A stretch of 46,071 nucleotides of DNA from Planctomycetia bacterium (lineage in GTDB: Bacteria > Planctomycetota > Planctomycetia > Pirellulales > UBA1268), in NCBI GenBank assembly GCA_009922585.1, contig RFVE01000001.1, positions 1 through 46,071 of the forward strand. Reading direction: 5' to 3'. Position numbers and translations under genes: made by a program. How positions within the stretch are numbered: position 1 is the first letter of the stretch; every line of letters starts with the position of its first letter. Positions 4,441-27,701 of the stretch are shown here, piece after piece. Under the pieces are notes generated by a model that worked only from the letters and a program-made list of their open reading frames with translations, did not search any database and had not been told where the DNA came from.

Positions 4441-4465
4441 CAACGGGCAAAGAGCTACACCTCCT

Positions 4466-8515: not shown

Positions 8516-8609
8516 TCGCTCTGGCAGCGGCAGGCGGGTTTCAGCAGAATCCCCGCCGCTTGAGGCTCGGCCAATGTGGCCGTGAGGCATTATTCCCTGC
8601 TGGTCTCTC

Positions 8610-9386: not shown

Positions 9387-9494
9387 TCGCTGCGAAACCG
9401 CTCTGGTTCCGACTGCGGGCCACCGCTACCGTCCGCCGCTCACCGTTGGCGGCAGCACCGCCTGGGCGGCAGAACCTTTGGAAGTGGTGGTCGT

Positions 9495-11415: not shown

Positions 11416-11437
11416 GGTCAGACCGCCCAGCGGCCGG

Positions 11438-12106
11438 CTACTCCTTCAGCGACAGGACAGCCCGTCGAGCCCGGGCCAGAAAATCGAGTTTGGCCTCGTC
11501 CCGCTCCAGCCAGAGCGGCGGTCCAAAACTGATGCACGATAGCAGCGGCACGGGCAGGAACTCTCCCCGCGGCAGCACGCGGTTGAGGTTGTCGATGTGT
11601 ACCGGAATCAGCTCGATGTCGGGCCGCTTCTTGGCGAGGTAGTAGAGTCCACTTTTGAACTCCCCAACCTCACCCGTCACGCTGCGGCTGCCCTCGGGAA
11701 ACACGATTAGTGAGAAGTTCGTGCCCGCCTCGCGCAGCATCAGATCAACGGGGCTTTGATGGACCTTGATGTCGGTGCGGTCGATAAGAATCGCATCGAA
11801 GACCTCCTGGGCCAGCCACCGCCGAACTACACCACCCGACCAATAGTCTTTGGCGGCCACCGGCCTGGTCACCTCCCGCACGGTCCGCGGCAGCGAGGCC
11901 CAGATCAGCAGGGCATCGAGGTGGCTGGTGTGATTGGCAAAGTAGACCCGCTGGCAGGTGTCAGGCTGGCTGGCAATCCAGCGTGCGCTTGCCCCGGCGA
12001 GCAACCTGGCAAGTCCGGCCAGCCCCAGCCCGGTCAGCCGGCACAGAGCGGTCCGGCTCACCGGTTGGGTGTGGGGGGGTGGCGACAGATCAGCAGGGGC
12101 GAGCAT
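11438..12106 (-). CDS. plsC: 1-acyl-sn-glycerol-3-phosphate acyltransferase (lysophospholipid acyltransferase family)
   Basis: HX4D motif FANHTSHLDALL and the FPEGSRS motif. Lies directly upstream of cdsA on the same strand. Confidence 0.8.
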   Translation of the reverse strand: MLAPADLSPPPHTQPVSRTALCRLTGLGLAGLARLLAGASARWIASQPDTCQRVYFANHTSHLDALLIWASLPRTVREVTRPVAAKDYWSGGVVRRWLAQEVFDAILIDRTDIKVHQSPVDLMLREAGTNFSLIVFPEGSRSVTGEVGEFKSGLYYLAKKRPDIELIPVHIDNLNRVLPRGEFLPVPLLSCISFGPPLWLERDEAKLDFLARARRAVLSLKE

Positions 12107-12150
12107 CGGAGGAGGTTGAAACTGTGATGGAAAACCGGGAGCCCACCGGC

Positions 12151-12825
12151 TCAGGGGGCTGAAACAAAAGGGTTGTACTTTTTCTCGTGACCGACGGTCG
12201 TCGGCTCTCCATGGCCGGGCAGCACGATGGCAGTGTCGGGAAGTGAATAGAGGTGTTCAACAATTCCCGCAGCCAGCGCGGCGAAATCACCGTCGGGAAA
12301 GTCGGTCCTGCCGATGCTCTCGTGAAACAGTATGTCGCCGGCGAAAACGAGCATCGGTTCGGTGGGAAACAGGAAGGCCACATGGCCCTGCGAATGGCCG
12401 GGAATCTCAACCACCGACGCCTCGAAGCCCCCAAACCCGACACCATCCCCATGCTTCAGCAGCGTATCCGCTGGCGGGCTGGTCACGGAAATCCCGTAGC
12501 CAGCGGAGAGGTTTGCGACCGGATCGGTCAGCTTTTCGGCATCTGCATGGCCGATCATGATCGGCAGCCGGGGCCAATGCTGCCGCAGCGGTGCCACCCC
12601 GGCAATGTGATCAGAGTGCCCGTGCGTCAGCCAGACAGCCTCTGGTTCGAGGCCGAGGCTGTCGAGCAACGAAATGATGGTGTCAGGCTCAAAACCGGGA
12701 TCAATCACCAGGCAGCCCGGTTGTGCGTCCCGCCGGATGATGTAGCTGTTTTCAGCAAACGGCTGCGACACCACTCGAAAGACCTCAAGCGGGCCAGCGA
12801 CAAGCAGCGGAGCGACAGAATCCAT
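12151..12825 (-). CDS. MBL-fold metallo-hydrolase (glyoxalase II-like)
   Basis: THGHSDHIAG (HxHxDH), plus the later GHSQGH and LPGHG motifs. 224 aa. Confidence 0.85.
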   Translation of the reverse strand: MDSVAPLLVAGPLEVFRVVSQPFAENSYIIRRDAQPGCLVIDPGFEPDTIISLLDSLGLEPEAVWLTHGHSDHIAGVAPLRQHWPRLPIMIGHADAEKLTDPVANLSAGYGISVTSPPADTLLKHGDGVGFGGFEASVVEIPGHSQGHVAFLFPTEPMLVFAGDILFHESIGRTDFPDGDFAALAAGIVEHLYSLPDTAIVLPGHGEPTTVGHEKKYNPFVSAP

Positions 12826-13214
12826 AGCGAGACGGGTTAGAAAGGGCGGCGGGTCGGGCAGACCCTCGATACTCTACCCGCAGGGGGACCAAAAACGGCA
12901 GGATTCCCCAAAAAACCTTCCGCCGGGCTTTTCAGAATAGGCATTTTTGCCATAGCCCGCCCCGGACTCGATCGCTACCGTTTCCCGACCAGTTGGTGGC
13001 CCGGTGGTATTTGCTGGACCGCCTCAGCCGATTGAAGTGGCTCGCCCGGTCGTTCGCATGGTGCGGATGAGGTGAGCCGCCACAAGAAAAGCAACGCCGC
13101 GGGTCTCCGCGGAGCGATAGACCAATGGAACAACATCGCCAGCCTGTCACCCCCGCGGCTCCGCGGCATCCGGCAGACAATGGTCATTCAAGCGATCCAA
13201 TGGAGGATTCTGGT

Positions 13215-14132
13215 ATGAGCGGATCTGGCACGCCTGCGTCGAGAGTACTGCCGCACCAAGTTCGGCGGCGTCGCAGCAGCTTCGTCTGGGCCCTGCTCCC
13301 CTGTCTCCTTGCCTCCGTGGTTACCGCGAACGAACCAGCCGAACAGCCAGGGCTGCTGCCCAATGGCGGAGCCGCCGAGGGCAATGTCGGGGCTTCTGAT
13401 GCGGTCGCCAACACCGCCCCTGGTCAGCATCCACTTGAGCCGGCCTTGGCGCTCGCCGCCAAGGGGCTGGCCAACGTCAAGGCCAACATTCAGGACTACT
13501 CCTGCACGGTGGTCAAGCGAGAGCGGATTAGCGGTGAACTAAAGCCACACGAGTACATGTTCGCCAAGATCAGGCATCAACCGTTCAGCGTCTATCTCTA
13601 CTTTCTCGCACCCGATAGCGTGAAGGGGCAGGAGGTAATCTACGTCGACGGCCGGAACGACGGAAACATGCTGGCCCATGCCGGCAGCGGCGTTCGGGCG
13701 ATGGTCGGCACGGTGTCACTGAAACCACAGAGCATGCTGGCGATGCAGGGCAATCGCTATCCGATTACGGAACTGGGCGTCGAAAATCTTGCCAAGCGAC
13801 TCGTCGAAGTAGCTGAGCATGACAAGCAGTTCGGTGAGTGCGAGGTGAACTTCTACCCCGAGGCCAAGGTCAACGGCCGGGTCTGCACCTGCGTGCAGGT
13901 GGTCCATCCGGTGCCGCGGCGAAACTTCCGATTTCATCTCGCCCGGGTCTACATCGATGATGAACTCCTGATTCCGATCCGCTACGAGGCCTACGACTGG
14001 CCGGCCGAGCAGGGCGGACAGCCGGTGCTGATGGAGGAGTACACCTACATGAACGTGAAGGTGAACAACGGCTTTACTGACGCCGACTTCGACCCCGCCA
14101 ACACCGCCTATAAGTTCAGCGCCACAAAGTGA
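13215..14132 (+). CDS. secreted DUF1571-like protein
   Basis: Signal-like RRRRSSFVWALLPCLLASVVTA. The core YSCTVVKRERISGELKPHEYMFAKIRHQPFSVYLYF...GNRYPITELGVENL resembles, from memory, the planctomycetal DUF1571 family. The ATG at 13215 follows GGAGG by 8 nt; the track start is 13125. Confidence 0.55.
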   Translation: MSGSGTPASRVLPHQVRRRRSSFVWALLPCLLASVVTANEPAEQPGLLPNGGAAEGNVGASDAVANTAPGQHPLEPALALAAKGLANVKANIQDYSCTVVKRERISGELKPHEYMFAKIRHQPFSVYLYFLAPDSVKGQEVIYVDGRNDGNMLAHAGSGVRAMVGTVSLKPQSMLAMQGNRYPITELGVENLAKRLVEVAEHDKQFGECEVNFYPEAKVNGRVCTCVQVVHPVPRRNFRFHLARVYIDDELLIPIRYEAYDWPAEQGGQPVLMEEYTYMNVKVNNGFTDADFDPANTAYKFSATK

Positions 14133-14161: not shown

Positions 14162-14190
14162 GAGACAGTCGTTCGCTGTCTCAGCGAACG
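14162..14190. terminator. hairpin-forming sequence between convergent genes (possible bidirectional terminator)
   Basis: GAGACAG-tcgttcg-CTGTCTC (14162-14182), with the alternative pairing CGTTCGCTG-tct-CAGCGAACG (14170-14190). It overlaps the stop codon of the 2189-aa ORF and has no U-tract. Confidence 0.3.
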
Positions 14191-17100
14191 GGCTGTGAGA
14201 ACTGTCCGACAGCGGTGCGGGTAACCGATGAGGCCCCGGCAGGGCCATCCCGCCGATATTCGATCGTCTCTGCCTCGGCCGGTGAAATCTCAGGCCGCCG
14301 CTGTTCCTCAAGACCCCGCAGCCAACGCGTACCGAGCGTCACTGCCGTTGCAGCCACCACAACGAGGCCCGGCCAGAGTGGCTCGCGGTTGAGCAGCCAG
14401 GCGATCCCGCCGAGCCCAACCACTGCCGGCCACCAGCGCGAGGCAGCAGCAAAGGTTCGCCCTGGTCGCCGCGTCACCGACCACCAGCCGGCCGCACCCG
14501 CCAGAAACACCAACAGCGTGGCAGCCGTCCGCCCTGACTCATTGGCTGTGATCGCCACAAACCGAACCGTAATGGCAGGCTGCTCAGGTGCCGGCAACAG
14601 GGTGAGCCTAGACCAGCGTGAATCGTCGACCAAGAAACCACCGACGGAAGGCCCGTCATCACTTGCGGCAGGGAGACCTGATTCAACAACCGCCCAGGCC
14701 TCCAGTGGTGACAAGCCCGGCTGCCGCAGACTTCGAAAACGCTCGAAGCGTTCAGCAGCAACCGTCCCGCTGGGAGTCAGCCCGGCCAGCAACTTGTCGA
14801 TGGCCGCACCGGCCTCCCTACGAATGCGATTGGCTTCGATCGTTGTTGTCGTGCGGCCCGCACCTGCCACCCGCGGAGAGAGTCTTGCGGGATGGTCCAC
14901 CGTCCAGATCACCCGCTTCGTCGGCAAACCTGTCAGCATCGGCGGCTCAAACAGCACCGGTTCGCCCTCCATCACCTCGGTGCCGATCTCGCCAGCAAAG
15001 ACAGCCACGATCTCCCGGGGCCAGGGACTGGGCCGCAGTGTGATTGTCCAGACATCATCCGGCCCTTCACGGCCCGGCACTGCCGGCTGCACCTCTCTGC
15101 CATCAACCAGCAACTCAAACAGGCGAAAGCCTTCCGGAAGTCGCAGCCCCACTGCCGACCGGCTGGTCGTCAGATCAAAGCGACCAATACCCGACAGCCG
15201 GCCCCGCTCATCGATCACGATTTCAATGTCAGCCAATTCGACCGCTGCCTGGAAGCTCCCCGGTCGGACGGTCGCGACAGGACGATTGGTAGGCAACGGG
15301 CTGCCCACGCCTTCTCGCCGCAGTTCCGCTGACGGACGATCACCCGGGCCGCTCGTGCGATAGGACCAGGCTGCGTTATTCACCGGCAGGTCGATCCTCC
15401 AGGTTGCAACGCCAGTTGCTGCTTCAACTGCTACACCGGAGATCGGTTCAGCCTCGGCTGGCTGTTGCGTACCAGCAACACGTCCCGGGTTTTCCAGAGC
15501 CTCAAAAAACTCAGGGGATCCCTGACCGGCAGCATCCGACCAGAGCACCGAATAGGGGAGCCCCGCAGCCAACTCAGAGGAAACCAAGGGAACCGGCCCG
15601 GCGACCGGTAGCCGGCGGCCGCGACGGGCCTCGAGCCGCAACAGATAGCGACCAGGTCGGGGCCGTTGGATCACGAGCCGTTGGCTGCCGGAGGGCTCAG
15701 CGGTTCGCACCAGATCGACCGGCTGCCCGGCCGCCGCGGCTTCGCTTGTCTCTGGCTGCTCGCTCAGTTCACATGATTCAATCTCGAAGCCCGCTGGGAT
15801 CCTCAGTCTATCCTCGACCCAGACCGTCGCCCGGGCGTCGATCATTGCCTCGTAAACCAGTCGTGTATCCCGAGAACTGGTAAGAATTTCAATCTGCTGC
15901 CGACCGCGTACCGGTGTCGCCGACCGGGTCACCTCTAGCACAACCGGCTGCCGCTGGAGCGCCAGCGTTGGCATGTCGCTGTTACTCTCACCTGAAGTTC
16001 GTCTTCCGCTTCCGCGTGGCCCGGTGATCCCTGCTTCAAGGCTCGTCTCAATGACATCTACCGACCAACTGATGCCTGCAAACGAATCCTCCAGCAGGGG
16101 TGGAGCGGCGCTGCCTGGAAATCGAACCGTGAAATCGAGGTCGGCCGCTGTGGCCAGTAAGACCTCCCGGTGATCGACCCGCACACCGCGAAGCCAGACA
16201 TCGGGGAGGTCAACGACACCAACCGGACCAGCCAAGGGCATGCTGAACGGAATCTCAAACCGAGCCTCTCCCCGGACCGGTGTCTGACGGTCAACCCGGT
16301 AGACACCAGGACCGACCGATACCAGTTGATAATCGGCAGCCACACCAGCCGGCAGGTCTGCCGAATCGTTTCTGGCTGGACGTAATCGGGGATCGGCCTG
16401 CAACCAGATTGTCGGCAGGATCGCCTGCCCGGTATCGATGGTGAACTCCGCGATCAGGCGGCAACCGTCGGCATTCCAAGCAATGAGATTTCGGCTTTCG
16501 GCCTCCGGGACCGTTGAAACCAAGGTTCCCTCAGCGTCAACCGGCCGAATCAGCCGCAGCAGGCGGGCGGCCGGAAGCCGATAGCCCTGCTGGCCGGTGT
16601 CAGATGGACGGGACTCGGTTGCCGGCTGAAAGACCAGACCATTCCGTGACCACTCGCAGGCCAGCCTTCTGCCGACCGGGCTGGCGATCTCTGCGGCGGG
16701 CGGAATCAGACTCGTCTGAGGCGAAACCGGCAGCCGCACCTCGGCGACCTCAAGATCCCCGCGGCGGTTCCAAGCCGGCTCAAGCGGGATCGTCACGGTG
16801 TGCCGGCCGGCGGCTGGCAGCGGCACCGTCAACCTTCTCCGATCGGGTGACAGACTGGCCCGGACAACTCCACCATCCAGCCGCACGGGCAGTTCTGAGA
16901 ACCGGCTTTCGGTCGGTGACTGATCGAGCGAAAGAACGGTGGCAGCGTCTGATTCGACCAATAAATTGAGCCACCACACCTCCGGAGTACCGGCGGCCCG
17001 CCAGGCCTCGCGGGCCTGCGGCTCAACTCGGCAATCGAGCAGTCGCGCACCTGTTCGGCTGGCACCTGTTTCGACACCCGCAAGCAGCCGAAACAAGGGC

Positions 17101-20100
17101 TGTGGCACGAGCGCCGTCAGCCCCTCTTCAACCGGGGTGACAAACACTCGCAGCGGCATTTCCTCAGCTCCGGCTGGAGCAGGCAGCAGGATGGCGGCCA
17201 GCAGCAGCCCGCCAATTCCAACCGGCTTCGTGAGTCCACGCAGCCGCAGGATGGCCACAGTCACGGCCGCCCAAAGACCTGACCGCAGCAACATATCGAG
17301 GGGCTGTGGCACCCAGAGCGCAGCCACGGCCATCAAGGTGACCAGGGCAAGCAGTAGCCAACTCCATCGCCAGGGAATCTGCGTTGCCAATCCAGCCACC
17401 AGGAGGGCCACCAGCCCGGCGGCCATCACGAGGGTCAGCCGATCGACGAGCAGAAAGGAATGGCGTTCATAGCGACCGCCATTCGGCACGAATCGACGAC
17501 CCCGAAAAACCCGGTCGACACCAGGTTGCTGCTGGGGGTCTCGGGGCAATTCAGCTGCCCGCGCAACCCCACCGACCAGCCGGTTGCTCCAATCGGATTG
17601 CTGGCTAGCAACCTCGCGGTAGCCCCTGGGAATTGCAGCGATCGACAGGGTGTCAGGGAGTAACAACTGCCACTCCCGCAACAGTGTTGGGGCGTCAACC
17701 GTCGGCGTGTCGGTACTCAATCGCCAAAGCCCAAACTGTGGCGAGGTATTGGAAGCCGTTCGCACAAGCAGGGTGAGGCGGCGTCTTCCCGGTGGCAGGT
17801 AGATCGGCAGTTCGCCGGTCGGAGCGGCGAGGAGCGGCATTCGTTCACCAGCTACCGTGATCCCGAGGAGCCGATGATCGGCAGGGAGGCTCAGTTGAAT
17901 GCTTCGGCGACCATCGTTTTCAATATCGAAAGCCGTCTCAAATTCAGCCGCAGCAGAGGCGAAACATCGCACAGTTGTCCGCTCCTGCCAGACCCAGGCC
18001 CGAGCAACGGGTCGGGCCGCCACCGGTGCCGGCACCAGCATTGCGGCCGGTCTGCCCGGACCGTCACCACCAACCACCAGCATGTCGTACGACAATTCGG
18101 CGACCGTCTCGAGCGGTGTGTCGGAGTGCCGCTCGCGAGGTGGCAGTTCCGTCAACCGGCGGTTCTCGACCAAAGGACGTTCCTGCCCGACAGCCTGCAC
18201 AATCGCTTCACCAGTTGCCGAGACAGCAGCCTCGACCCAGGCAAGCGGCAGTGGGATCTCTTTGCTGAAAGGACGAGAAGCAGTGGCCCGTAGAGTTCCG
18301 ACCCCGACCACCGGTGGCGTCACCTCGATGCGGTACGACACTGCCGTTGGCCAACGAGTTGATGCAGGGCTCTCACGGCCAGCCCGATCGATCGGCTCTA
18401 ACCGCCGAGCAAAAACAGTCGCGTTTCCGGCCGCGAGGATTGACCACTCCAGCTCACCGACTGGCTCGGAGAAGTGCACTGTTACTGCGTCAAGCTGTCC
18501 CTGGATCGGCGTACAGATAAAGCTGTAGGTCTCGTTGAGCCGATCACCCCGGACGGTGAAGCGTGCCTGGGTCTGAACGTCCAGGGGCGGCCTCCGTCGC
18601 AACAGCTGAAAACCGCGTGGTGGCGTCAGCATTCCGCTGGCGATCCGCTGCCGCCAACTCTTCCCCTCACTGAGGGCAAGCAGCCGGGGTGGAAGCGTCT
18701 CTGGAGGAGCTTCTCCGGTTCCACCAAGCTCCTGCAGGGTGGTGTCGGAACTGGTCTGCAAATCAATCCAAGATCGACCAGGAACTTCGCCCGCCATCCT
18801 GATCATCTCGATATCGGCTGAGCTGAAACGACCTCCGGCAGGGATGGCAGCGCGGTGTCCGGTAATCCGCAGCCGCAGTTCCCGGTCAGTTGTCACCGCG
18901 GTGGGAAGGTCCAGAATGAGTCGATCGCCCCGCCGTTCACGGACAACCTTCCACTCGTACCGCGGTCCCGCCGTTCCGACCGCTTCGCCCCGGGGGGCCG
19001 TAATTGCCGGGCGTTCACGCAGGGACTCAGGTGGTGATCCAGCTGCCTCAGCGGCTGGCTGCCCAAGCGGCTCGATCGAGTCGATGAACCAACCATCACC
19101 GACGAGCGCATCAAGCCGGTGGACGCTGCCCCGCCTCACCCGGATGTCAAAGGCCGCTCGACCGATGACCGCAGCGGTTGTCAGTTCGACCGTGGTAACT
19201 CTGGCGATATCGAGTTCGGGCCGTTGCGGAGCGACACGTACGTCAACAGTTGAACCGGGCTGTTGCAGCTCAAATGCGAAGGCCGCCCCGGGGGGCTGAG
19301 AACCGCTCTCAGTGTCCACCGGAAAAACGCCCGGATCAGGCAGCGGCCAGCGGGACGTCTCCTCGGGTGAAATTGGCAGGCAGCCGTCGGTATCGACGCC
19401 GATGCACTGCAGATCCGCTTCGACAGTTACCGCCAGTCCGCCACCAGCCCACTGCCAGTCTTCAATGGTGATTCCAGGGAGTCGGTTCGATTTGTTTTTC
19501 TGTCCCTGAGCAGTCAACACCGCCCGGAGTTGTAATGGCCACGGGCGTCCCAATGCTTCAACCGGAAGCCTGATTGCCAGTGACCCGTCCAGCACCGAAA
19601 GCAACTCGACGGAAAGCGGTTCACGCCCCTCGCCAGGCTGAACCGATAGCTCGGTCAGCTGCAACCGTGCCCCTCCACCAAACGTCAGCTCGCGGCTGGT
19701 CCATACTCCCGCTGGCATGATGACAGTCGTCAGTTCCTTCGCCCGGCGACCCAGATGGGCCCTCGACCAGAGAAACAACCGTGGGCTCGTCGCTGCCGCT
19801 ACGGTGATCTCCACTGCGTCCCGCGGGCCAAAAGAAAACTCCCAGATTCTGCGATTTTCACCAGCCACCATTGTCGGCTTTGGCCTTTCCGAGCGGCCTC
19901 GAAAACCGGGTATTCGCGGCTCAAGGCCGGCGGGCAGATCAAGGAAAAGCGTCGTTGATAAGGCGGGGAGCAGGGGCAGGCGATAGGAGAACTCCGGCTG
20001 CCCGCCTGCCAGCGGGACGGCCTGAACCTGAGGCTGCAGCCCACGTATTGGCCGGGCGGAAACTGCGGCGGTCACGGTTCCGGGGCCTGGCACCCGCAGT

Positions 20101-20750
20101 TCAACCGAGCCGTCGGACAGCCCGAACAGATCGACCTCGCTGCCAGGGAGTTGGCTCTGTTCCACACCCGAACGCGAAGACTGCTCAACTACCCTATCGC
20201 TCTCCGCTGCCTCCGCTGACACCCAGCGGCAATCTCCGATGTCAATCTGCCCAACCGGAATCGTGACTGCCGGCAGCCCATTCGATGGCCCACCTCCACC
20301 GTCGATAGCGAACTTAACCTGCCCCAGCAGTTGACCAGCCTTATCCAGCCGAAGTTCATAGCGAACGAGATCGGCGGCTGGGAGAGGGAGTCCGGTCAAC
20401 CGGCTTCCCACCGGCGCAGTGAACTGGCGGACCGCCTCTTCGAACTCCGTCGCCGGCATCGGAACGTATTGCACGCCGGCAGGGACAACTTCCGCAAGCC
20501 GCCCCGGCGGCACTTGCACTCGGATGAATGACAAATCGCCGCTGGCATCAGGAACCGTCGGCCGCTGTTCAGCCGTCGAGGGGGCGACCCTGCTGGGATC
20601 TTCCGCCTGGCTGTCTGATCGAACCGTCACGCCCGTGATAACCACCGCCAGCATCAACCAGGCCGGCCAACTGCCGATTTCAGCACGGGCTGTCGCAGCC
20701 TTTGCTCGCAGCCATCGCCGCAACTCATGATTGCCCGTTCGTTTCACCAT
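14181..20750 (-). CDS. giant membrane-anchored envelope protein, unknown function (2189 aa, two tandem modules)
   Basis: Uninterrupted 6.57-kb ORF. It has an N-terminal anchor (WPAWLMLAVVITGVTV), a central TM cluster (residues ~1099-1170) followed by a signal-peptide-like LLLAAILLPAPAGA/EE, and a C-terminal TM cluster (~2075-2140). I recognise no catalytic or repeat signature. Confidence 0.85.
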   Translation of the reverse strand: MVKRTGNHELRRWLRAKAATARAEIGSWPAWLMLAVVITGVTVRSDSQAEDPSRVAPSTAEQRPTVPDASGDLSFIRVQVPPGRLAEVVPAGVQYVPMPATEFEEAVRQFTAPVGSRLTGLPLPAADLVRYELRLDKAGQLLGQVKFAIDGGGGPSNGLPAVTIPVGQIDIGDCRWVSAEAAESDRVVEQSSRSGVEQSQLPGSEVDLFGLSDGSVELRVPGPGTVTAAVSARPIRGLQPQVQAVPLAGGQPEFSYRLPLLPALSTTLFLDLPAGLEPRIPGFRGRSERPKPTMVAGENRRIWEFSFGPRDAVEITVAAATSPRLFLWSRAHLGRRAKELTTVIMPAGVWTSRELTFGGGARLQLTELSVQPGEGREPLSVELLSVLDGSLAIRLPVEALGRPWPLQLRAVLTAQGQKNKSNRLPGITIEDWQWAGGGLAVTVEADLQCIGVDTDGCLPISPEETSRWPLPDPGVFPVDTESGSQPPGAAFAFELQQPGSTVDVRVAPQRPELDIARVTTVELTTAAVIGRAAFDIRVRRGSVHRLDALVGDGWFIDSIEPLGQPAAEAAGSPPESLRERPAITAPRGEAVGTAGPRYEWKVVRERRGDRLILDLPTAVTTDRELRLRITGHRAAIPAGGRFSSADIEMIRMAGEVPGRSWIDLQTSSDTTLQELGGTGEAPPETLPPRLLALSEGKSWRQRIASGMLTPPRGFQLLRRRPPLDVQTQARFTVRGDRLNETYSFICTPIQGQLDAVTVHFSEPVGELEWSILAAGNATVFARRLEPIDRAGRESPASTRWPTAVSYRIEVTPPVVGVGTLRATASRPFSKEIPLPLAWVEAAVSATGEAIVQAVGQERPLVENRRLTELPPRERHSDTPLETVAELSYDMLVVGGDGPGRPAAMLVPAPVAARPVARAWVWQERTTVRCFASAAAEFETAFDIENDGRRSIQLSLPADHRLLGITVAGERMPLLAAPTGELPIYLPPGRRRLTLLVRTASNTSPQFGLWRLSTDTPTVDAPTLLREWQLLLPDTLSIAAIPRGYREVASQQSDWSNRLVGGVARAAELPRDPQQQPGVDRVFRGRRFVPNGGRYERHSFLLVDRLTLVMAAGLVALLVAGLATQIPWRWSWLLLALVTLMAVAALWVPQPLDMLLRSGLWAAVTVAILRLRGLTKPVGIGGLLLAAILLPAPAGAEEMPLRVFVTPVEEGLTALVPQPLFRLLAGVETGASRTGARLLDCRVEPQAREAWRAAGTPEVWWLNLLVESDAATVLSLDQSPTESRFSELPVRLDGGVVRASLSPDRRRLTVPLPAAGRHTVTIPLEPAWNRRGDLEVAEVRLPVSPQTSLIPPAAEIASPVGRRLACEWSRNGLVFQPATESRPSDTGQQGYRLPAARLLRLIRPVDAEGTLVSTVPEAESRNLIAWNADGCRLIAEFTIDTGQAILPTIWLQADPRLRPARNDSADLPAGVAADYQLVSVGPGVYRVDRQTPVRGEARFEIPFSMPLAGPVGVVDLPDVWLRGVRVDHREVLLATAADLDFTVRFPGSAAPPLLEDSFAGISWSVDVIETSLEAGITGPRGSGRRTSGESNSDMPTLALQRQPVVLEVTRSATPVRGRQQIEILTSSRDTRLVYEAMIDARATVWVEDRLRIPAGFEIESCELSEQPETSEAAAAGQPVDLVRTAEPSGSQRLVIQRPRPGRYLLRLEARRGRRLPVAGPVPLVSSELAAGLPYSVLWSDAAGQGSPEFFEALENPGRVAGTQQPAEAEPISGVAVEAATGVATWRIDLPVNNAAWSYRTSGPGDRPSAELRREGVGSPLPTNRPVATVRPGSFQAAVELADIEIVIDERGRLSGIGRFDLTTSRSAVGLRLPEGFRLFELLVDGREVQPAVPGREGPDDVWTITLRPSPWPREIVAVFAGEIGTEVMEGEPVLFEPPMLTGLPTKRVIWTVDHPARLSPRVAGAGRTTTTIEANRIRREAGAAIDKLLAGLTPSGTVAAERFERFRSLRQPGLSPLEAWAVVESGLPAASDDGPSVGGFLVDDSRWSRLTLLPAPEQPAITVRFVAITANESGRTAATLLVFLAGAAGWWSVTRRPGRTFAAASRWWPAVVGLGGIAWLLNREPLWPGLVVVAATAVTLGTRWLRGLEEQRRPEISPAEAETIEYRRDGPAGASSVTRTAVGQFSQPVR

Positions 20751-20767
20751 TGGCGCTCTCCCTCCTA
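20751..20767 (-). promoter_or_regulatory. translational-coupling junction: stop TAG of the 1263-aa ORF, GGAGGGAG Shine-Dalgarno, ATG of the 2189-aa ORF
   Basis: The minus strand reads TAGGAGGGAGAGCGCCAATG, with only 14 nt between the stop and the start. Confidence 0.5.
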
Positions 20768-23700
20768 TTCGGCGACGGAACGCTGGGGAGCGACCTCGGG
20801 AGCAGCTTGTGCCGAGGTGGGCTTGGTGTTGATCACGAGTGATTCATCGGGGGCGGCCCGCGTCACCGAATCGGGTCGGCGTTCATACCCCGAGAGAACC
20901 TCAGCAGCCAGCCGGGGGCCAAGCGGCCGAGCCGTCCGCCACCAGACTGAGACTCCCGCAATCGACGCCAACACAAGCCCCGGAACAGCCGCCTGCAGAA
21001 CAGTCAATGTGGCAAGTGGAACAAGTGCCATTCCGGCAATGAACGCCACCGCCAGCAGCCCGGCAAACTGACCAAGGAGCCGTTCCCGCAGCGACACCGC
21101 CAGCCCGACCAGCAGCGGGAGGCCACTGGACACGAGCACCAGCAACCATTGCGGCATCAGCATGATGCTGGCGGCGGCAGGAGCCCCCACATCGCAGTAC
21201 ACCAACCTTGCATTCATTCCTGCCGCCGGTGCCGCCACTAGCGCCTCTAATCGCTCCGCCAGCGCGTCGGAGCCAGCATTCCCGGCCAAAACCATGCCCG
21301 TGGCCTTTCGGTCTGCAGCAGCAGTCACCCAGGCTGCGAGTTCCTCTGCGGAAACCACCGGCGTCGGTCGAAAGCCTAGACTCGTCCAGCCCCAAGCCTG
21401 CTGGGCAGTCCATCCAGCAGGTCCCGCCAGCACGACGGCATCCGGCGGTGTCAACACCTCCCAGTAGACCCTCCTGTATAAGGTAGAGGCGGGGAGGCCG
21501 GATCGCTCGAGTGCAACTCTGTTCGGTAAAGAAAGCCGACCGATCGTCGGCCTGTTGGCCCGGGGCTGGCGTATTTCAATTTCAAGCAGATGGGTTCCAC
21601 CCGTGCGGTCGAGGTCGACCAGGAGACGACCGCTGGCATCATCGGCCACCTGCCACTCACCACCGTCAACCCGCACGCGGGCAGTGGTCTGCGTCATTGC
21701 CTCAGCCCCCGAGGCCAACTCCTTCGCGACCGGTAGAAACAGCGGCAGCCGACCTGCCGCTGTCGTGACAGCACATGTCCAATGATCAATCCGAAGCGTC
21801 TGGCGAATCAGCGTTTGTACCCAGGCCGCTTCCACCACAGTCTCACCGCGGACGTCCTCGCCGCGTCGGGAAATCGCCAGATCGATACGTGGCTGTTGCT
21901 GCACGGCGTTCCAGGTCCGGCCAAAGCCCTGTTGCTGCAGATCGCCCTCCCGGTTCCAGCGGTCGTCTCGCACGTCGACGTTAAAACCAACCGTCTCGGT
22001 CAGCGTGACCGATTCGCGACCGATCACCGCCGGCTGGGGCAGAAGCAGCGGCACCGAGACTGCAACGGTCGTTTCGTCTGGAATCTCCGGCAGTGGCTGA
22101 CGATAACGGATAACCAATTCCCCCATGCCGAGCAGCGGCTCGGTCAGGAGGGCCCTGATCGCCCGCTGCGGAGAAGTGGTTGTCGCTTCGCCATCGCCCG
22201 CTTCCGGCACAGCTGCCGGAGCGGCCGGTTCAGCTGGGCCAGGAAACGGCTCGGCGGCAACATCTGCGGCAACGACATCCGGCAGCAGGAGCTGGCCATT
22301 CTGCCGAATTTCGATGTCTGCCTCGTCCAGCACGGATTCGGGGACCACCCATTCGATGAACTCGAGCGGCACATTGGCCACATCCAGCCGCACCACCTGG
22401 CGGACAGCCAACGCAGTCGTCCCGATGTCGATTTGGGAGGCGACCGTGGCATCGACCTGACGATCAAGGAACCGACGGTTCGCCGCAAAAATTGCCTCAG
22501 TCGCCTCCACCCGATAAGTCATCCTGGGTACTTCACCGGCAACCTTGCCCTGCTGGACTGCGACCTGGCGGCTCATCCCTTCAATCAGCTCGTTGTCGGG
22601 AATGACTTCGATGTCACTGTCTGAGGTGATGGTGACATTCGCAGGCCCAACCAGATCGGCACGGGGCACAGGAGTCGTCCACCTGAGCAGGGTATTCACG
22701 CGATCGATCGGCCTGCTACAGCGGAGTTCAACAACTACATCTCCAGCAAGCGGCTGGAGAAAGGGCACCGAGACCTCACCCTCATCGACCGCTACCCGGG
22801 CGGTGTCAACAATGCCTGCCGGCCCGACGTCCTCAACTTCCCAGCCCGGAATCGCCAGCCGCACCCGTTCCGCCGCCACCCCGCGAATCGATGCCCGCAG
22901 TCGGATATCAACCTCAATCCGACTGCCACTGACGTGATAGCGATACTCCGGCTCGATGACCACGCGGCTCCGGCGTGGCTTCACCGTCAGGGGTAGCCGG
23001 GCCGGCTGCGAGTCGTAGGCAAAGGCTGCCACGAAGCCGGGTTGCTGCATGGCCACCGGTGGGTCAATACGTCGGTTCTCCGGCTGCGGCTCCCAGTCGA
23101 CCTGCCAGTCACCGTCGGCAATGACGCTCGTGCTGCCCCACTGCCGCCAGTCCGGAATATCGGCCACGCTGAACCCACCCACATCAAAGCTCTCCCGGCC
23201 GGCAGGATCGATCGCCCGTTCACAGGTCAATTCGACCATTGCCTTGCCCTCTCGAACATCATCGAGCCGTACCACCGCCACCGGCTGGTCCGCTGTGCCA
23301 CCCCGACGAATCAGACTTGCTGGCTGGCCAACCCGGCGCAGGACTGCCCGCGGTGGTAAAGCGATGGTAAGAGTCCGGCGATCGGCGGGCAGATTTGCGA
23401 GTTGCAGAACCGCATCGATCCGAGCCGTGCGACCGTCCACACGGACGACGCTTTCGGTTGTCACTTCGGTCAACTCAGCCGCCATCAGTGTCGCCGGTTC
23501 AGGATTTGTCAGCCGGATACGGGTCGGCCCGACCAGTCCTTCAACCGAAACCCGACTTCCGCCAGCGGCCTCCGGGCCGTCGTCCAGCGGCACCACTGCG
23601 GGGGCGAGCACTCGGGGCGCGAGGCTGACCTCGGGCTGTCGCCGCCAGGAATCGATTTCAAGCCGGGACCTGGCTGCCGCCGGCAGGGTCAGCGAGATAA

Positions 23701-24556
23701 GATCCCGGCGGTCGGTACCATCGACAGGGATCAGCCCCTCCAGGGTGATCGTCTGCCGCTCGGACTCACTCTCTGAAACTGGCGTCCCGGCTTCCCGCCC
23801 ATTCACCCAAGCCAGAAAGCCACCACTCTCGCCGCGGAAGGTCACGGGCCCGTCCGCCACTGCCGGCAGACGCTGGTCGGTGGCATCAGAGCTGGGCGTG
23901 ACTGGCGGCCTGTCGACCGTCAGGATCACTCGCCCGGCACCCGTCACCCGGGGCGGAGCTGTCAGCACCAGTTCGGAAAGCTTCAACGGCAGCATGACCC
24001 AGCCCGGGCGGGTCTGCCGGATGACCGCCTCTACTTCAGCGACAGCCGTCTGCCGATTGTCATCACGCGGTGGCATGATGACCCGCACCCGCACCTGCTC
24101 GAGGACCGCACCCGGTAGCTCCGGGAGCCCGGGTAGCCCTTCGCGAAGCCTGATCAGGTCGACAAAATCGCGGTACCGGAATCCGGGAACGGGAACCAGC
24201 CCCCCGGCATCGTCCTCTAAATAGTAAAGCTCCGGCTCAAGTTCTCGCACCCCAGCCGTCGCCGGCGGTCGCACTGGCTCCGCTGCCACGGCGACAGCCA
24301 GTGGCACCATGAGCCAAGCACAGAGCAGCCAGCCTGCCAGCAACTCGCACAGGGGCAGTCGGCAGAGCCTCCGCTGCCGGCGGGATGGGGGGCAATACAC
24401 GAGCAGTTGCCGATTTCTATGGTGTGAGAATTTTCCGATTGCGCAAACCGCTACCTCTTTGAACCTACCCCGCAGCAACCCGACCTGCCCAGCAAATTCC
24501 CCGAGGCCGGGCGGGGGCGGCTCCCGCCGCCGCGGAATGAGTCGGATGACCGGCAT
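20765..24556 (-). CDS. giant membrane-anchored envelope protein, unknown function (1263 aa, one module)
   Basis: Signal/anchor LLAGWLLCAWLMVPLAVAVAA/EP, a ~1030-aa ectodomain without recognisable motifs, and a C-terminal TM cluster (residues ~1132-1207). The true start is uncertain: the first ~55 residues are Arg/Pro-rich and may be non-coding. Confidence 0.8.
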   Translation of the reverse strand: MPVIRLIPRRREPPPPGLGEFAGQVGLLRGRFKEVAVCAIGKFSHHRNRQLLVYCPPSRRQRRLCRLPLCELLAGWLLCAWLMVPLAVAVAAEPVRPPATAGVRELEPELYYLEDDAGGLVPVPGFRYRDFVDLIRLREGLPGLPELPGAVLEQVRVRVIMPPRDDNRQTAVAEVEAVIRQTRPGWVMLPLKLSELVLTAPPRVTGAGRVILTVDRPPVTPSSDATDQRLPAVADGPVTFRGESGGFLAWVNGREAGTPVSESESERQTITLEGLIPVDGTDRRDLISLTLPAAARSRLEIDSWRRQPEVSLAPRVLAPAVVPLDDGPEAAGGSRVSVEGLVGPTRIRLTNPEPATLMAAELTEVTTESVVRVDGRTARIDAVLQLANLPADRRTLTIALPPRAVLRRVGQPASLIRRGGTADQPVAVVRLDDVREGKAMVELTCERAIDPAGRESFDVGGFSVADIPDWRQWGSTSVIADGDWQVDWEPQPENRRIDPPVAMQQPGFVAAFAYDSQPARLPLTVKPRRSRVVIEPEYRYHVSGSRIEVDIRLRASIRGVAAERVRLAIPGWEVEDVGPAGIVDTARVAVDEGEVSVPFLQPLAGDVVVELRCSRPIDRVNTLLRWTTPVPRADLVGPANVTITSDSDIEVIPDNELIEGMSRQVAVQQGKVAGEVPRMTYRVEATEAIFAANRRFLDRQVDATVASQIDIGTTALAVRQVVRLDVANVPLEFIEWVVPESVLDEADIEIRQNGQLLLPDVVAADVAAEPFPGPAEPAAPAAVPEAGDGEATTTSPQRAIRALLTEPLLGMGELVIRYRQPLPEIPDETTVAVSVPLLLPQPAVIGRESVTLTETVGFNVDVRDDRWNREGDLQQQGFGRTWNAVQQQPRIDLAISRRGEDVRGETVVEAAWVQTLIRQTLRIDHWTCAVTTAAGRLPLFLPVAKELASGAEAMTQTTARVRVDGGEWQVADDASGRLLVDLDRTGGTHLLEIEIRQPRANRPTIGRLSLPNRVALERSGLPASTLYRRVYWEVLTPPDAVVLAGPAGWTAQQAWGWTSLGFRPTPVVSAEELAAWVTAAADRKATGMVLAGNAGSDALAERLEALVAAPAAGMNARLVYCDVGAPAAASIMLMPQWLLVLVSSGLPLLVGLAVSLRERLLGQFAGLLAVAFIAGMALVPLATLTVLQAAVPGLVLASIAGVSVWWRTARPLGPRLAAEVLSGYERRPDSVTRAAPDESLVINTKPTSAQAAPEVAPQRSVAE

Positions 24557-24577
24557 GAACCGTTTTTTCGGTTTCTG

Positions 24578-25444: not shown

Positions 25445-25507
25445 GAATCTTCCTCGAGTATGCAGCGGTTTCAATCGCCGCGGCTGCATTACCCTAGATT
25501 CTACAAT

Positions 25508-26344
25508 ATGCTGCCGGATGCCATGACGCAGACCACGATCAGCAGCGGAGCAGCCACCGGGTTCACCTGGCATGCCCGCAAATCGACCGATCACTCCCGC
25601 CGCGATGCCGCCAGCAACACTGACCGGCTGAATGTTGAGATCGGTGACCTCAGCGGCTGGCTTGACCTGCACCGCCCCGAGCAGGGCATTCAACTCAGCG
25701 GGTGTAACGCCGCAGCCGAACTGCTGGCAGTGAGGCTACCCGACAGGCTTGCCAATCAATTCATCGATGGCTGGGTTCGCGGCGGCGACGCGGTCTCCAT
25801 CCACGAACCGCGGAATAGCCGCAGGCTTCGTGCCACGGCCCTGTGGCGGCTGGCGACAGGTCCGGCCGATCTCACTGTTGAACTGGTGCTGTCAGTTCAG
25901 ACCTCAGCCGTTCGCAGTGATGGAGCTATCGCTGTCGATTGCCGGTTGCCAGCGACTGAGGTCATTCCAGGCATCAGTACAGGCCAACAGCTGGAATGGC
26001 TACCGCCCATCCCCACCGCTGGCGTTACCCAACTGCCCTGGCGGCAACTCGCCAATGCTGCCGTACTCTGCCTCCTGTTTCGTCAGTCCCTTGCGGGCCG
26101 AAGTCTTGCCATCTGCGTACGGCGAGACGAGGGTCGCGAAGTCTCCTTGCAGAGGCGCACGCTGCCCGAACGCCCCGAGCCACCCAGCTTCACCCTCACG
26201 ACCTGGTTTTTCCCCACACTCATCGAGAAGGGTGTGCTGCATCGAAGCCGCCTCTCGGTCACCATCGGGAGTCCGGCAGATGATTTGGCATGGGCAGCAG
26301 CAGCAGCCCAGTCACTGGCCAGTCAGCCACCGCTTTTGCAGTAG
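25508..26344 (+). CDS. hypothetical cytoplasmic protein (278 aa)
   Basis: Coding-like third-position GC bias. No TM segment and no motif I recognise. The ATG at 25508 is chosen because the track start (25214) lies inside the divergent IMPase gene. Confidence 0.5.
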   Translation: MLPDAMTQTTISSGAATGFTWHARKSTDHSRRDAASNTDRLNVEIGDLSGWLDLHRPEQGIQLSGCNAAAELLAVRLPDRLANQFIDGWVRGGDAVSIHEPRNSRRLRATALWRLATGPADLTVELVLSVQTSAVRSDGAIAVDCRLPATEVIPGISTGQQLEWLPPIPTAGVTQLPWRQLANAAVLCLLFRQSLAGRSLAICVRRDEGREVSLQRRTLPERPEPPSFTLTTWFFPTLIEKGVLHRSRLSVTIGSPADDLAWAAAAAQSLASQPPLLQ

Positions 26345-26479
26345 CGGAAATCACGGTGACGGCGGTAGAGTCCTGAACAAGGATGGACTTAAACCGGGCA
26401 AACAGGCGAAACCTTGCCAGTAGATGCAGCCTGGTCTGGCAGCGATCGTCCCACCGCCCGAATCGCCGAGAGACTGCCC

Positions 26480-27682
26480 ATGTTTGATCTTATTTTCGCC
26501 TCTAATCCTACCATTGACTGCCCAATTGCTGAGCCGGAAGGCATCCCCGAGCCGCTCGGCCTCCGGCTCAGACAAGCACCACTGACCGCTCTGCGGCAAG
26601 CCTACCAGCTGGCCCGCGAGCATGAGGCCAGTGGCGTTGTTCTCTGCGGCAGCGTCATCAACCCGCTGCGGGCAAGTCCTGCTCAGGTGATTGCCCTTCG
26701 CCAACTCGTCCTCGAAGCAGCGGCCGACGGCTGCGACACCATTTGGGTCACGACCAATCCGACAGCCCCCCGCGAGGTACAGCGGATGCTGGGGGAACCT
26801 GCCGGTCTGAGCTTTGCCACGCCACTCAATCCCTGGACGGCGACCATTCGCTCGACCACAGTTGAACTCTGGGCAACCGCCACCCCAGCCGACGCTGAAC
26901 GTGCCGTAGCCACCGAATCGCCCGCGGCGTTGCACCGTCGGATCCTGATTGGCTGTGAGTCTGAACACGACCGGACGGCCCGCCAGACCATCCCACCAGC
27001 AGTGCTGAGCCGGCCAGACACCCTTGTGATTTGGGCCACCGCGACCGCCGGTAGCCTGCCACCCGGAGTCCTCCGCTTGCCACCCCTCCAGGCCCGAGCA
27101 CGAAATCTGCCACCTGATGAAGGCTGTCACGGGCTGCGTCTCTATCAGCCACCAACAGACAACGACGAGGCCGCCGTCCAAACGGCAGCGGCCAGCCGTC
27201 AACTTGCCAGCTGGCAGTCGCTGCCAGCTGCGGCAGTAATCTGGCGGACGATCTGCATCGAGTCTGCTGAAGGCGACCATACTCAACTTGCTGAAAGCCT
27301 CTGGCGGGCCCTTGAACCGCTGGCGCAACAACCGCCGCCAGCCACTACCGCCCCGTTGACCTTGATTGACTGCCAGGTTTCGTGCGGTACGAGCGTGGAA
27401 CGTCGGATCGAGGTCGGCGCTGCTGCTGAGGCGACGCTCCGCCTGCTGCGTGAACGCTGTCGCACGGCGACCGGAGACCTCTGGTGCGAAGCCGTTGCTG
27501 CCGACGCCGATGAGTCGCTTGCTCCCCTCGGCCACAGTCGCTCGGGGGGACGCCCCGGCGCCAGCAACTCATTCACCTCGGCACTGGCCGACATCGTGAC
27601 CGAGCGGGAAGCGACCGGCCAGGGTGTGCCGCTCGACCGGGAAGCTGCCTGGCTCGCCCTCGAACTGCTCGCGGCCGACTGA
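26480..27682 (+). CDS. YhaO/SbcD-like calcineurin-type phosphoesterase homologue with substituted metal-ligand motifs (putative pseudo-nuclease)
   Basis: 400 aa, placed immediately upstream (19-nt gap) of the Rad50-like ATPase, as in yhaO-yhaN/sbcD-sbcC pairs. By-eye alignment to the canonical motifs: LIFASNPTID vs FIHxADxHLD; VVLCGSVIN vs vvIaGDlfD; IWVTTNPT vs vyxIxGNHD; PPLQARARNLPPDEGCHGLRLY vs GNxQGRhxxExGxKGxxLV. The ATG at 26480 (MFDLIF) is preferred to the track start at 26414. Confidence 0.55.
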   Translation: MFDLIFASNPTIDCPIAEPEGIPEPLGLRLRQAPLTALRQAYQLAREHEASGVVLCGSVINPLRASPAQVIALRQLVLEAAADGCDTIWVTTNPTAPREVQRMLGEPAGLSFATPLNPWTATIRSTTVELWATATPADAERAVATESPAALHRRILIGCESEHDRTARQTIPPAVLSRPDTLVIWATATAGSLPPGVLRLPPLQARARNLPPDEGCHGLRLYQPPTDNDEAAVQTAAASRQLASWQSLPAAAVIWRTICIESAEGDHTQLAESLWRALEPLAQQPPPATTAPLTLIDCQVSCGTSVERRIEVGAAAEATLRLLRERCRTATGDLWCEAVAADADESLAPLGHSRSGGRPGASNSFTSALADIVTEREATGQGVPLDREAAWLALELLAAD

Positions 27683-27701
27683 ACTTTGTGGAGAAAAGCC
27701 A

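Follow-up and report, generated by a model that had tools for sequence, protein, structure and literature searches.

The window, a stretch of 46,071 nt from a Planctomycetia bacterium, contains two very large genes on the minus strand, which are called A and B here. The maximal open reading frame of gene A spans positions 20765..24556 and has a length of 1263 aa, and gene B (14181..20750) encodes 2189 aa and consists of two A-like modules in tandem. The coordinates, strand and lengths given in an earlier sequence-only reading turned out to be exact. It was also verified that the two genes are separated by a 14-nt spacer (20751..20764, minus strand), which carries the Shine-Dalgarno-like sequence GGAGGGAG in front of the start of B. 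The TAG stop codon of A ends with the first G of this sequence. Translational coupling had been proposed for this junction, and the comparison of loci supported it. In all 54 loci a B-type gene came after A; the junction lay within -8..+30 nt in 51 of these 54, and the stop of A and the start of B overlapped as ATGA in 37. Natural A+B1+B2 fusions of 3007-3410 aa recurred in independent assemblies and mapped colinearly. The pair was kept in the loci L006 and L087 and in a Schlesneria-type locus, though B is only about 16-23 % identical there, and all neighbours other than the pair differ in these three loci. A and B are real, co-translated genes, which are invariantly paired.

The start of gene A required revision. 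A GTG at codon 53 (position 24400) was kept in all seven close relatives; it is probably the true start, and codons 1-52 of the called reading frame are probably untranslated. When relatives were compared, mismatches in this region were equally frequent at all three codon positions, some of the indels were not multiples of three, and in locus L017 the matching region contained an in-frame stop. The first 156 nt appear to be a conserved non-coding element, and the start was therefore moved to codon 53. The probable coding region is 20765..24400 (minus strand, 1211 aa), and the upstream region at 24401..24577 (minus strand) is probably non-coding. The conserved DNA element contains the perfect palindrome TTGCGCAA (24439..24446, minus strand) and also carries GGTAGG-type boxes. 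It occurs once in the window, where chance alone would give 0 matches, and in relatives it was enriched upstream of A (18/58 loci versus 1.4 % of background windows). RNA structure was looked for in the element and none was seen, and an Rfam search yielded no match. A gap of 21 nt had been reported between A and the preceding IMPase gene. This is correct for the maximal reading frame, but with the start about 156 nt further downstream the real gap is probably about 177 nt. For this reason, and because the IMPase gene is absent from the distant loci, its presumed tight coupling to A was not borne out, and the arrangement is only a synteny of the Pirellulales.

Protein A is predicted to begin with a signal peptide or anchor helix (24287..24343, minus strand; aa 72-90 of the maximal reading frame; hydropathy 2.27), which is followed by AVA|AEP, and signal-like N-terminal segments were found at the equivalent place in its relatives. 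The putative periplasmic ectodomain (21152..24286, minus strand; aa 91-1135) was modelled with AF2 at a pLDDT of 80.9. In the model a conserved beta-hairpin plus helix (aa 110-139) is followed by about 6-7 beta-sandwich domains in a chain, including strands of 23-25 residues, by three short helices (aa 1070-1106) and by a terminal beta-hairpin (aa 1116-1135). Conservation of the ectodomain was highest at aa 121-140 and 501-540. A conserved polar cluster around aa 460-540, which includes WRQWG, NRRIDPP and RxSRVVIEPEYRY, could represent an active site or a binding site for a ligand. A three-helix membrane bundle (20933..21151, minus strand; aa 1136-1208) is predicted from the AF2 helices (model positions 1045-1117), hydropathy and K/R-rich flanks. 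W, S, G, P and Q make up its nearly invariant residues, none of them charged. The cytoplasmic tail (20768..20932, minus strand; aa 1209-1263) is predicted to be disordered (pLDDT below 50). It contains a conserved short S/T-rich motif, DSVTRAAPDESLVI, with S1230, T1232 and S1239 nearly invariant. The motif was present in 42 of 80 A tails versus 5 % in shuffles.

A conserved tail motif would suit a transmembrane receptor or signal transducer with an integrin-like logic, and integrin alpha chains belong to the best matches in the structural comparison (see below). It is rather unlikely that the ectodomains act in this way, binding a ligand in the periplasm or envelope, and just as doubtful that the S/T-rich motif attracts a partner in the cytoplasm or is modified by one. 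Neither A nor B has a kinase, HAMP or GGDEF domain or any other output domain, the distant loci lack an adjacent conserved signalling gene, and in B tails the motif is loose (10/55).

Protein B comprises the modules B1 and B2. Module B1 (17241..20678, minus strand; aa 25-1170) was delimited by hhalign against A and by hydropathy, the latter indicating an anchor helix (aa 25-43), an ectodomain (aa 44-1104) and three TM helices (aa 1105-1170). Module B2 (14184..17234, minus strand; aa 1173-2189) was recognized by hhalign, Foldseek and an AF2 model with a pLDDT of 74.5. The model shows an anchor helix (aa 1173-1191), a hairpin plus helix (aa 1202-1229), a beta-sandwich chain, helices (aa 1970-2024), a hairpin (aa 2046-2066) and three TM helices (aa 2071-2151), followed by a cytoplasmic tail. 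The AF2 models of A and B2 thus have a common plan, from the signal or anchor helix, the beta-hairpin with its helix and the beta-sandwich chain to the short helices, the second hairpin, the three membrane helices and the tail. The order of the secondary-structure elements at both termini is identical, and the inter-domain geometry of the models is uncertain (pTM 0.44-0.46). An anchor, an ectodomain of roughly 1000 aa and a TM cluster occur three times according to hydropathy and AF2 helices, as had been proposed.

BLASTP between the modules A, B1 and B2 revealed no similarity. Deep hhalign comparison aligned A 55-1203 end to end with B 7-1171 (98.1 % probability, E 1.1e-13) over 1016 colinear columns, and reversed-profile controls gave E-values of at least 0.0065. 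As judged from the profiles, the similarity of A and B1 is well above chance. The hhalign probabilities of B2 with A and with B1 were 76-85 %, and by profile similarity B2 is a third, more diverged copy of the module. Among distant B proteins, an HMM of A matched both halves of L087_B (full-sequence E 2e-10), and an HMM of B2 matched both halves of P0150 and P0151. The motif pairs that had been noticed by eye lie in register in the profile alignment (A110-134 with B75-107, A567-577 with B548-559, and A1027-1043 with B1024-1038). The FD motif of B1 maps to B1871-1885, its end motif to B1940-1960 and the end motif of A to B1945. It is concluded that the three modules of about 1000 aa, i.e., A and the N-terminal and C-terminal halves of B, are paralogous.

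The loops assigned to the cytoplasm are rich in K/R, and the junction loops in the A+B fusions have 40-46 aa with 6-8 K/R. Following the positive-inside rule, all modules would have an N-in/C-in topology with periplasmic ectodomains, and the predicted signal and TM segments are consistent with it. If every module is N-in/C-in, a tandem fusion is topologically possible. Each ectodomain would be tethered to the membrane at both ends, unless the N-terminal helix is cleaved, and its reach into the periplasm would thus be limited. The low content of Lys (0.6-0.7 %) and Cys (0.4-0.7 %) that had been pointed out was reproduced. However, Lys is rare genome-wide (0 % in p400, 0.6 % in the peptidase described below and 0.7 % in p294), and thus its scarcity is not a property specific to A and B.

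Searches for known families were negative. No family in Pfam and NCBIfam matched A or B at E<=1, and the outcome was the same for 38 members of the A family and for distant or fused members. The PDB yielded nothing to either sequence or profile searches, and the PADLOC anti-phage defence families gave 0 matches for A and 0 for B. No catalytic or nucleotide-binding family was matched in Pfam, NCBIfam or PADLOC. At the sequence level the pair has no match to any described family, and to this extent the view that it lacks recognizable domains is correct; the predicted folds, in contrast, are recognizable beta-sandwich types in Foldseek. The family is large. A profile of A retrieved 2374 cluster representatives at 50 % identity, all of them unnamed, and 913 of these at E<=1e-30. 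Homologues of A are 37-91 % identical and fall into 217+ clusters. A relative is present in 129 GTDB species genomes, and the pair is conserved across the Planctomycetia, out to the Schlesneria-type lineage. Because the module is so widely conserved and entirely unannotated, the three-module protein pair is a good candidate for an envelope structure not described before. The sequence-only reading of the pair as a paralogous family is supported, with the envelope-spanning or surface structure that it put forward kept as a proposal. It had named four findings that would speak against it, a profile match to a characterized family, a lack of module-to-module similarity, a lack of membrane segments and a strain-specific singleton, and none of them applies.

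The models of A and B2 were compared with the PDB using Foldseek, and the top 50 matches per model were considered. The set of matches was the same for both models. The top match of each was ribophorin I/Ost1 (E 2-3e-8, probability 1.0), with a target-normalised TM-score of 0.20-0.33, an rmsd of 18-27 A and scores comparable to those of integrin legs. Integrin alpha legs had E-values of 1e-6 to 7e-8 and an rmsd above 17 A. The best domain-level superposition among the matches listed was obtained with the N-domains of M1 aminopeptidases (rmsd 6-8 A over 170-230 columns), and 4gaa_A, 6a8z_A and 6ifg_B reached up to 20 % identity at a probability of 1.0. The TM-scores of the matches are low (0.07-0.33) and the rmsd values high because the domain orientations differ. 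Since ribophorin I has no clear advantage over the integrin beta-sandwich chains, which are generic, the match identifies a fold class and not a function. The predicted fold class of the ectodomain is that of ribophorin I/Ost1, M1 N-domains and integrin legs, all of which are non-catalytic folds.

That ribophorin I is the top match of two independent models would be expected if A and B were ribophorin I homologues that, as bacterial OST accessory subunits, aid periplasmic protein glycosylation or maturation. This is very improbable, because the Ribophorin_I HMM (PF04597) had no match in A, B, the 38 A-family members or the distant and fused members, the E-values are similar to those of integrin legs and the TM-scores are at most 0.33. 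In addition, the gene adjacencies examined revealed no STT3/PglB-type oligosaccharyltransferase gene in any neighbourhood, and the architecture of Ost1 differs from that of the modules (see below).

The rmsd of the M1 N-domains, the lowest among the matches listed, gains interest from a neighbouring gene. In most Pirellulales a gene for an HExxH peptidase lies directly after B, and a homologue of the gene at 9495..10472 of the window is co-oriented and directly follows B in 41 loci. The peptidase has a signal peptide, the motif HEITH and a conserved Glu further downstream, and a sub-threshold match to Peptidase_MA_2 was seen in 4/4 orthologues examined. It is 70-76 % identical in genomes in which A is about 39 % identical. 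The M1-N-like beta-sandwiches of A and B might therefore dock this exported zinc peptidase, an arrangement that is conceivable but unlikely. It would result in a membrane-tethered proteolytic or quality-control complex, i.e., an M1-type peptidase whose parts reside on separate polypeptides, which is unlikely to the same degree. In this window the peptidase gene is inverted and 3.7 kb away from the pair, and L006, L087 and the Schlesneria-type locus lack it beside the pair. Furthermore, conserved synteny within a single order can simply reflect history.

Genes of phospholipid synthesis (CdsA, PlsC) were found nearby in 34-38 of 84 loci, and the proteins are very large, membrane-anchored and predicted to have their bulk in the periplasm. 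Both features would agree with a conduit for transport or lipid transfer across the periplasm, similar to TamB/AsmA, MCE/LetB or a component of a secretion system. Such a function is nevertheless quite unlikely. AsmA/TamB, MCE, GldM/PorM and secretin were absent among the top 50 Foldseek matches listed per model, and Pfam found no AsmA, TamB or MCE domain. The distant loci have no conserved adjacent ATPase or outer-membrane partner, and the lack of charged residues among the nearly invariant ones of the TM bundle also argues against a conduit.

The explanation that is somewhat favoured is that the pair forms a non-enzymatic, heteromeric complex of the inner membrane with three modules per unit, which serves as a periplasmic scaffold or binding platform. 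The translational coupling and the natural fusions suggest the heteromeric three-module assembly, and the fold class together with the absence of catalytic motifs points to scaffolding or binding rather than catalysis or transport. A and B would form an obligate hetero-oligomer of fixed stoichiometry, and the unit of A, B1 and B2 would be a pseudo-trimer or a multiple thereof. It would sit in the inner membrane of Planctomycetia, from which a large beta-sandwich scaffold or binding platform would extend into the periplasm. Each module would start with an N-in signal or anchor helix and the conserved hairpin plus helix in a membrane-proximal position, and would continue with roughly six or seven beta-sandwich domains, three juxtamembrane helices, a beta-hairpin, the TM bundle and the tail.

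Several known systems were compared with the pair. BatD of the aerotolerance operon and DUF4139/MuiA are membrane-anchored bacterial families with beta-sandwiches. Their members are beta-rich, are exported and have membrane segments at the C-terminus, and their mechanism is not known. BatD (PF13584) and DUF4139-MuiA (PF13598, TIGR02231) were rejected, because neither A and B nor relatives or fusions had an HMM match at E<=1. Structures of BatD and DUF4139 were not among the top 50 PDB Foldseek matches listed per model. Genes for MoxR, DUF58 or BatA/BatB did not adjoin the pair in 8 inspected loci, and the sole VWA-domain gene in these stands alone in L004, some 5 kb upstream of A. TamB (DUF490), AsmA and MCE proteins were rejected for lack of an HMM match and of any beta-taco or tunnel structure among the Foldseek matches listed. 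Bacterial alpha-2-macroglobulin, with its MG array and thioester/TED, was rejected because there was no A2M match in Pfam; A2ML1 and complement appeared with the A model in Foldseek at probabilities of only 0.08-0.28. The sequence-only reading had named BatD, DUF4139/MuiA, TamB/AsmA and alpha-2-macroglobulin as families whose profile match would count against it, and in Pfam and NCBIfam they were absent.

As a non-catalytic subunit, Ost1 has two beta-sheet domains in the lumen and a single TM helix (PMC7226087). Like ribophorin I/Ost1 of the eukaryotic oligosaccharyltransferase, the modules of A and B are predicted to carry beta-sheet domains in tandem outside the cytoplasm, with a membrane helix behind them, and to lack a catalytic site. 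Unlike Ost1, they have about 6-7 domains and 1+3 TM helices, and the three paralogous modules are a feature of A and B only. The N-domains of M1 aminopeptidases (LTA4H, PepN, IRAP; Peptidase_M1_N) have long curved strands, as have the models of A and B, which differ by the lack of a thermolysin-like catalytic domain in cis. An identity as M1 aminopeptidases (HExxH...E, GxMEN) was rejected, because catalytic domain and HMM match are lacking and the likeness is confined to a single-domain fold. The similarity to integrin alpha is treated here as an architectural analogy, not homology. A and B lack the beta-propeller head, the I-domain and the metal-ion sites. In the legs of integrin alpha (thigh, calf-1, calf-2), as predicted for A and B, a beta-sandwich chain leads into a membrane segment and then into a short tail in the cytoplasm, and integrins are obligate hetero-oligomers, as A and B would be in the reading as a scaffold or binding platform.

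The two large ORFs at the centre of the window, A (20765..24556, minus strand, 1263 aa as called) and B (14181..20750, minus strand, 2189 aa as called), were confirmed exactly in position, strand and size, as was the 14-nt spacer between them, which carries GGAGGGAG. Together they comprise about 3400 residues with twelve membrane helices. The G+C content of the window is 64 %. Its sequence coincides exactly with part of a 52-kb metagenome contig and with part of an NCBI MAG, and both the neighbouring genes (DUF1571, IMPase, CdsA and PlsC) and all relatives indicate Pirellulales (Planctomycetota). The sequence-only reading had found no recognizable domain in either protein, and the database searches bore this out: at E<=1, Pfam and NCBIfam yielded zero matches for A, B, 38 family members and distant and fused relatives, PADLOC had no match to A or B, and sequence and profile searches of the PDB with the A and B families were equally empty. 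The depletion of Lys and Cys was rejected as a distinguishing mark of A and B, because Lys poverty is genome-wide.

It had been proposed that the pair consists of three paralogous modules, namely A and the N-terminal and C-terminal halves of B (B1 and B2). A BLASTP comparison of A, B(1-1190) and B(1191-2189) revealed no similarity (best E 0.1), and HMMER profile-versus-sequence comparisons between the modules were only marginal with the first, shallow alignments, so that deeper profiles were needed. Profiles of 38 A-type and 18 B-type sequences yielded colinear hhalign matches above the reversed-profile controls. The deep profiles contained 80 A and 55 B sequences, for which B-type genes were harvested from the fetched loci. 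Using these, A 55-1203 was aligned end to end with B 7-1171 over 1016 columns (probability 98.1 %, E 1.1e-13), while the best reversed-profile control reached E 0.0065, in a hydrophobic region. The matches of B2 to A and B1 had probabilities of 76-85 % and fell into more than one register. In addition, the A HMM matched a distant B protein (locus L087) colinearly in each of its halves (HMMER, full-sequence E 2e-10), and the B2 HMM matched both halves of the related proteins P0150 and P0151. These HMMER matches support the paralogy independently of hhalign, and the motif correspondences proposed from the sequence alone were all in register in the profile alignments. Repeats within single modules were faint (probability at most 36 %), and therefore no defined repeat unit is claimed. 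The paralogy shows that one module has been triplicated, into a predicted heteromer of fixed stoichiometry.

The family turned out to be large. At least 217 clusters homologous to A were found, with 37-91 % identity, and 29 clusters homologous to B. When the A profile was searched exhaustively as an HMM, it matched 2374 cluster representatives (50 % identity) at E<=1e-3, 913 of them at E<=1e-30. A pattern scan of the GTDB species genomes identified 129 genomes with a relative, and the best 80 of these 129 were all uncultured Planctomycetota MAGs, some of them under evidently wrong bin labels. Every name that any source has given to a relative is "hypothetical protein". Several loci (L007, L014, L024, L033, L054, L084 and others) carry the GTDB/NCBI MAG labels Chitinophagaceae, Chitinophaga or Candidatus Kuenenia, yet the locus is typically planctomycetal, and the taxonomy of such bins is probably wrong.

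The two genes are invariably paired. A B-type ORF directly follows A in 54 of the 54 loci with enough downstream sequence; in 37 of them the stop codon of A and the start codon of B share an ATGA overlap, and in 51 the junction falls between -8 and +30 nt, which supports the translational coupling suspected earlier. The pairing is kept on a 7.5-Mb contig despite a B identity of only about 23 %, and also in a Schlesneria-type lineage and in L087, where all other neighbours differ. Natural single-chain fusions of 3007-3410 aa (P0154, P0159, P0294; positions 1944..11117 of locus L079) were seen repeatedly in independent assemblies from NCBI, JGI, ENA and Logan, and they map colinearly as A+B1+B2.

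To characterize the architecture, AF2 models were analyzed for A residues 92-1263 (mean pLDDT 80.9) and for B2 (pLDDT 74.5). The A model consists almost entirely of beta structure and includes several strands that are 23-25 residues long. Both models share the order of elements, i.e., a beta-hairpin and a helix after the anchor, a chain of beta-sandwiches, three short helices, a second beta-hairpin connected directly to three membrane helices, and a tail that is disordered. From hydropathy, the AF2 helices and the positive-inside rule, every module is predicted to start in the cytoplasm, to cross the membrane with one helix, to expose a periplasmic ectodomain and to return via three helices to a cytoplasmic C-terminus. 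Modules with this N-in/C-in topology could be joined in tandem, two as in B and three as in the fusions, the junction loops of which have 40-46 aa with 6-8 K/R.

A Foldseek comparison with the PDB yielded the same set of matches for the A and B2 models. Ribophorin I/Ost1 was the first match of both (E 2-3e-8, probability 1.0), followed by integrin alpha legs, and the N-domain of M1 aminopeptidases matched at the single-domain level with an rmsd of 6-8 Å over 170-230 columns. The TM-scores were low (at most 0.33), so that the matches identify a fold class rather than a family. Ost1, an OST subunit that is not catalytic, has two lumenal beta-sheet domains and one TM helix (PMC7226087). That A and B are homologues of an OST accessory protein is nevertheless extremely improbable, as the similarity in fold is generic and the neighbourhoods examined contain no OST gene. 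A conduit for lipids or for secretion is very unlikely as well, as it found no support from the HMMs and no structural support among the Foldseek matches listed.

Conserved charged residues are absent from the TM bundles. The most constrained parts of A are a near-invariant N-terminal hairpin motif and a polar cluster at aa ~460-540 (window ~22937..23179, minus strand; WRQWG, NRRIDPP, PGFVAAFAYD, RxSRVVIEPEYRY). The latter is the most conserved stretch of the ectodomain, contains invariant Arg, Asp, Glu and Tyr residues, and is located just ahead of the first 23-residue strand pair. The disordered cytoplasmic tail of A (aa 1209-1263, window 20768..20932, minus strand) contains a conserved short S/T-rich motif with the consensus SASS.T[RQ]..P.PSL[IV]I, which is DSVTRAAPDESLVI in this A, and the B C-terminus (aa 2152-2189) has a looser version, SSVTRTAV. 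The motif may serve for phosphorylation or docking. Its conservation would fit a receptor that signals via the tail, but an output domain is absent, and such a function is regarded as unlikely.

The start of A probably lies downstream of the called one. Codons 1-52 are probably non-coding and overlap a conserved nucleotide element: mismatches in this region are evenly spread across the codon positions (e.g., 5/6/4, 12/9/10, 15/15/16), the lengths of some indels are not divisible by three, and one related locus (L017) has an in-frame stop. The true start codon is likely to be the GTG of codon 53 (window 24400), which is shared by 7/7 close relatives and precedes a segment resembling a signal peptide. 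The gene callers appear to share the 52-codon over-extension in the close relatives P0001 and P0003, both of 1263 aa. SRRxxxL, a sequence similar to the twin-arginine motif, occurs in several N-regions.

The element upstream of A (24401..24577, minus strand; core 24439..24469) is conserved across relatives. It contains two GGTAGG-type boxes and the perfect palindrome TTGCGCAA at 24439..24446, and it is unique within the window. It recurs upstream of A in lineages with only about 40 % identity, being present with <=1 mismatch in 18 of 58 loci versus 1.4 % of background windows. A structured RNA was ruled out (RNAalifold -0.9 kcal/mol, 0 covarying pairs, no Rfam match), and a scan for sigma-70 promoters and terminators remained at chance level. 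The conservation together with the lack of an RNA-structure signal points to a promoter-like or operator-like element, which probably serves the A-B transcription unit.

With the GTG start the gap between IMPase and A is about 177 nt. A tight coupling of the two genes is not supported, although IMPase is located upstream of A in 60 of 62 close loci. A functional link was rejected, because L004 has an inserted gene in between, the window a probable promoter region, and the distant loci lack IMPase; the adjacency is best read as order-level synteny. Beyond IMPase lies a divergent trio (25460..31070, plus strand) encoding a 294-aa protein, a 400-aa protein and a 1122-aa SMC/Rad50-like ATPase (AAA_23/AAA_27, weak LmuB match), which is kept in 42-63 of 84 loci. 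Neither of the two smaller proteins was matched by Pfam, NCBIfam or PADLOC. The three genes may represent a degenerate DNA-processing set of the SbcCD/YhaON type, and a link to A and B was rejected because their proteins are soluble and look DNA-related.

On the other side, B adjoins a DUF1571 gene (13125..14132, plus strand) that is present in only 14 of 84 related loci. A block with a peptidase, CdsA, PlsC and an MBL-fold hydrolase (~9495..14132) is inverted compared with most relatives (L003-L005). The peptidase (9495..10472, plus strand, 325 aa) is an extremely conserved, exported zinc metallopeptidase with a signal peptide and with HEITH followed further downstream by a Glu, and it matches Peptidase_MA_2 below the threshold; a PDB match of its profile, to a repeat protein, was spurious. 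A and B could be its docking platform, as a co-oriented HExxH peptidase directly follows B in 41 related loci and is 70-76 % identical in genomes in which A is only about 39 % identical. However, the adjacency is lost in the distant loci and in the window, where the gene is displaced, and this alternative has a low probability.

The reading that is favoured, at slightly better than even chances, is that A and B assemble into a hetero-oligomer whose stoichiometry is fixed at three modules per unit and which would be anchored in the inner membrane and present a large periplasmic scaffold or binding platform. This reading is favoured because of the invariant pairing, the translational coupling, the natural fusions, the paralogous modules, the non-catalytic fold class, and the lack of an enzymatic motif and of conserved TM charge.

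The envelope of Planctomycetia is unusual in that the periplasm is enlarged, the cytoplasmic membrane is invaginated and crateriform structures are present, and to our knowledge very few proteins that build these features are known. A search of the literature on crateriform-structure proteins, bacterial ribophorin-like proteins and BatD/DUF4139 links found nothing relevant. The size of A and B, the many unnamed relatives, the invariant pairing, the coupling and the occasional fusion make the pair a concrete, testable and strong candidate for a lineage-specific envelope component. It is tempting to speculate, with little confidence, that a Planctomycetia-specific pseudo-trimeric A-B complex, with its own promoter and the conserved TTGCGCAA operator, is the protein basis of such a feature, e.g., by anchoring crateriform structures or forming their base, or as a tether on which the geometry of the enlarged periplasm and of the invaginated membrane depends. 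If the complex were merely a passive periplasmic scaffold, this would still be a useful annotation and no surprise. With thousands of relatives and neither a name nor a Pfam/NCBIfam family, the pair merits an entry in the profile databases. Membrane-anchored chains of periplasmic beta-sandwiches are already known as a general idea, and so is the fold class; as far as libraries and literature were searched, neither the A/B family nor its three-module organization or distribution has been described.
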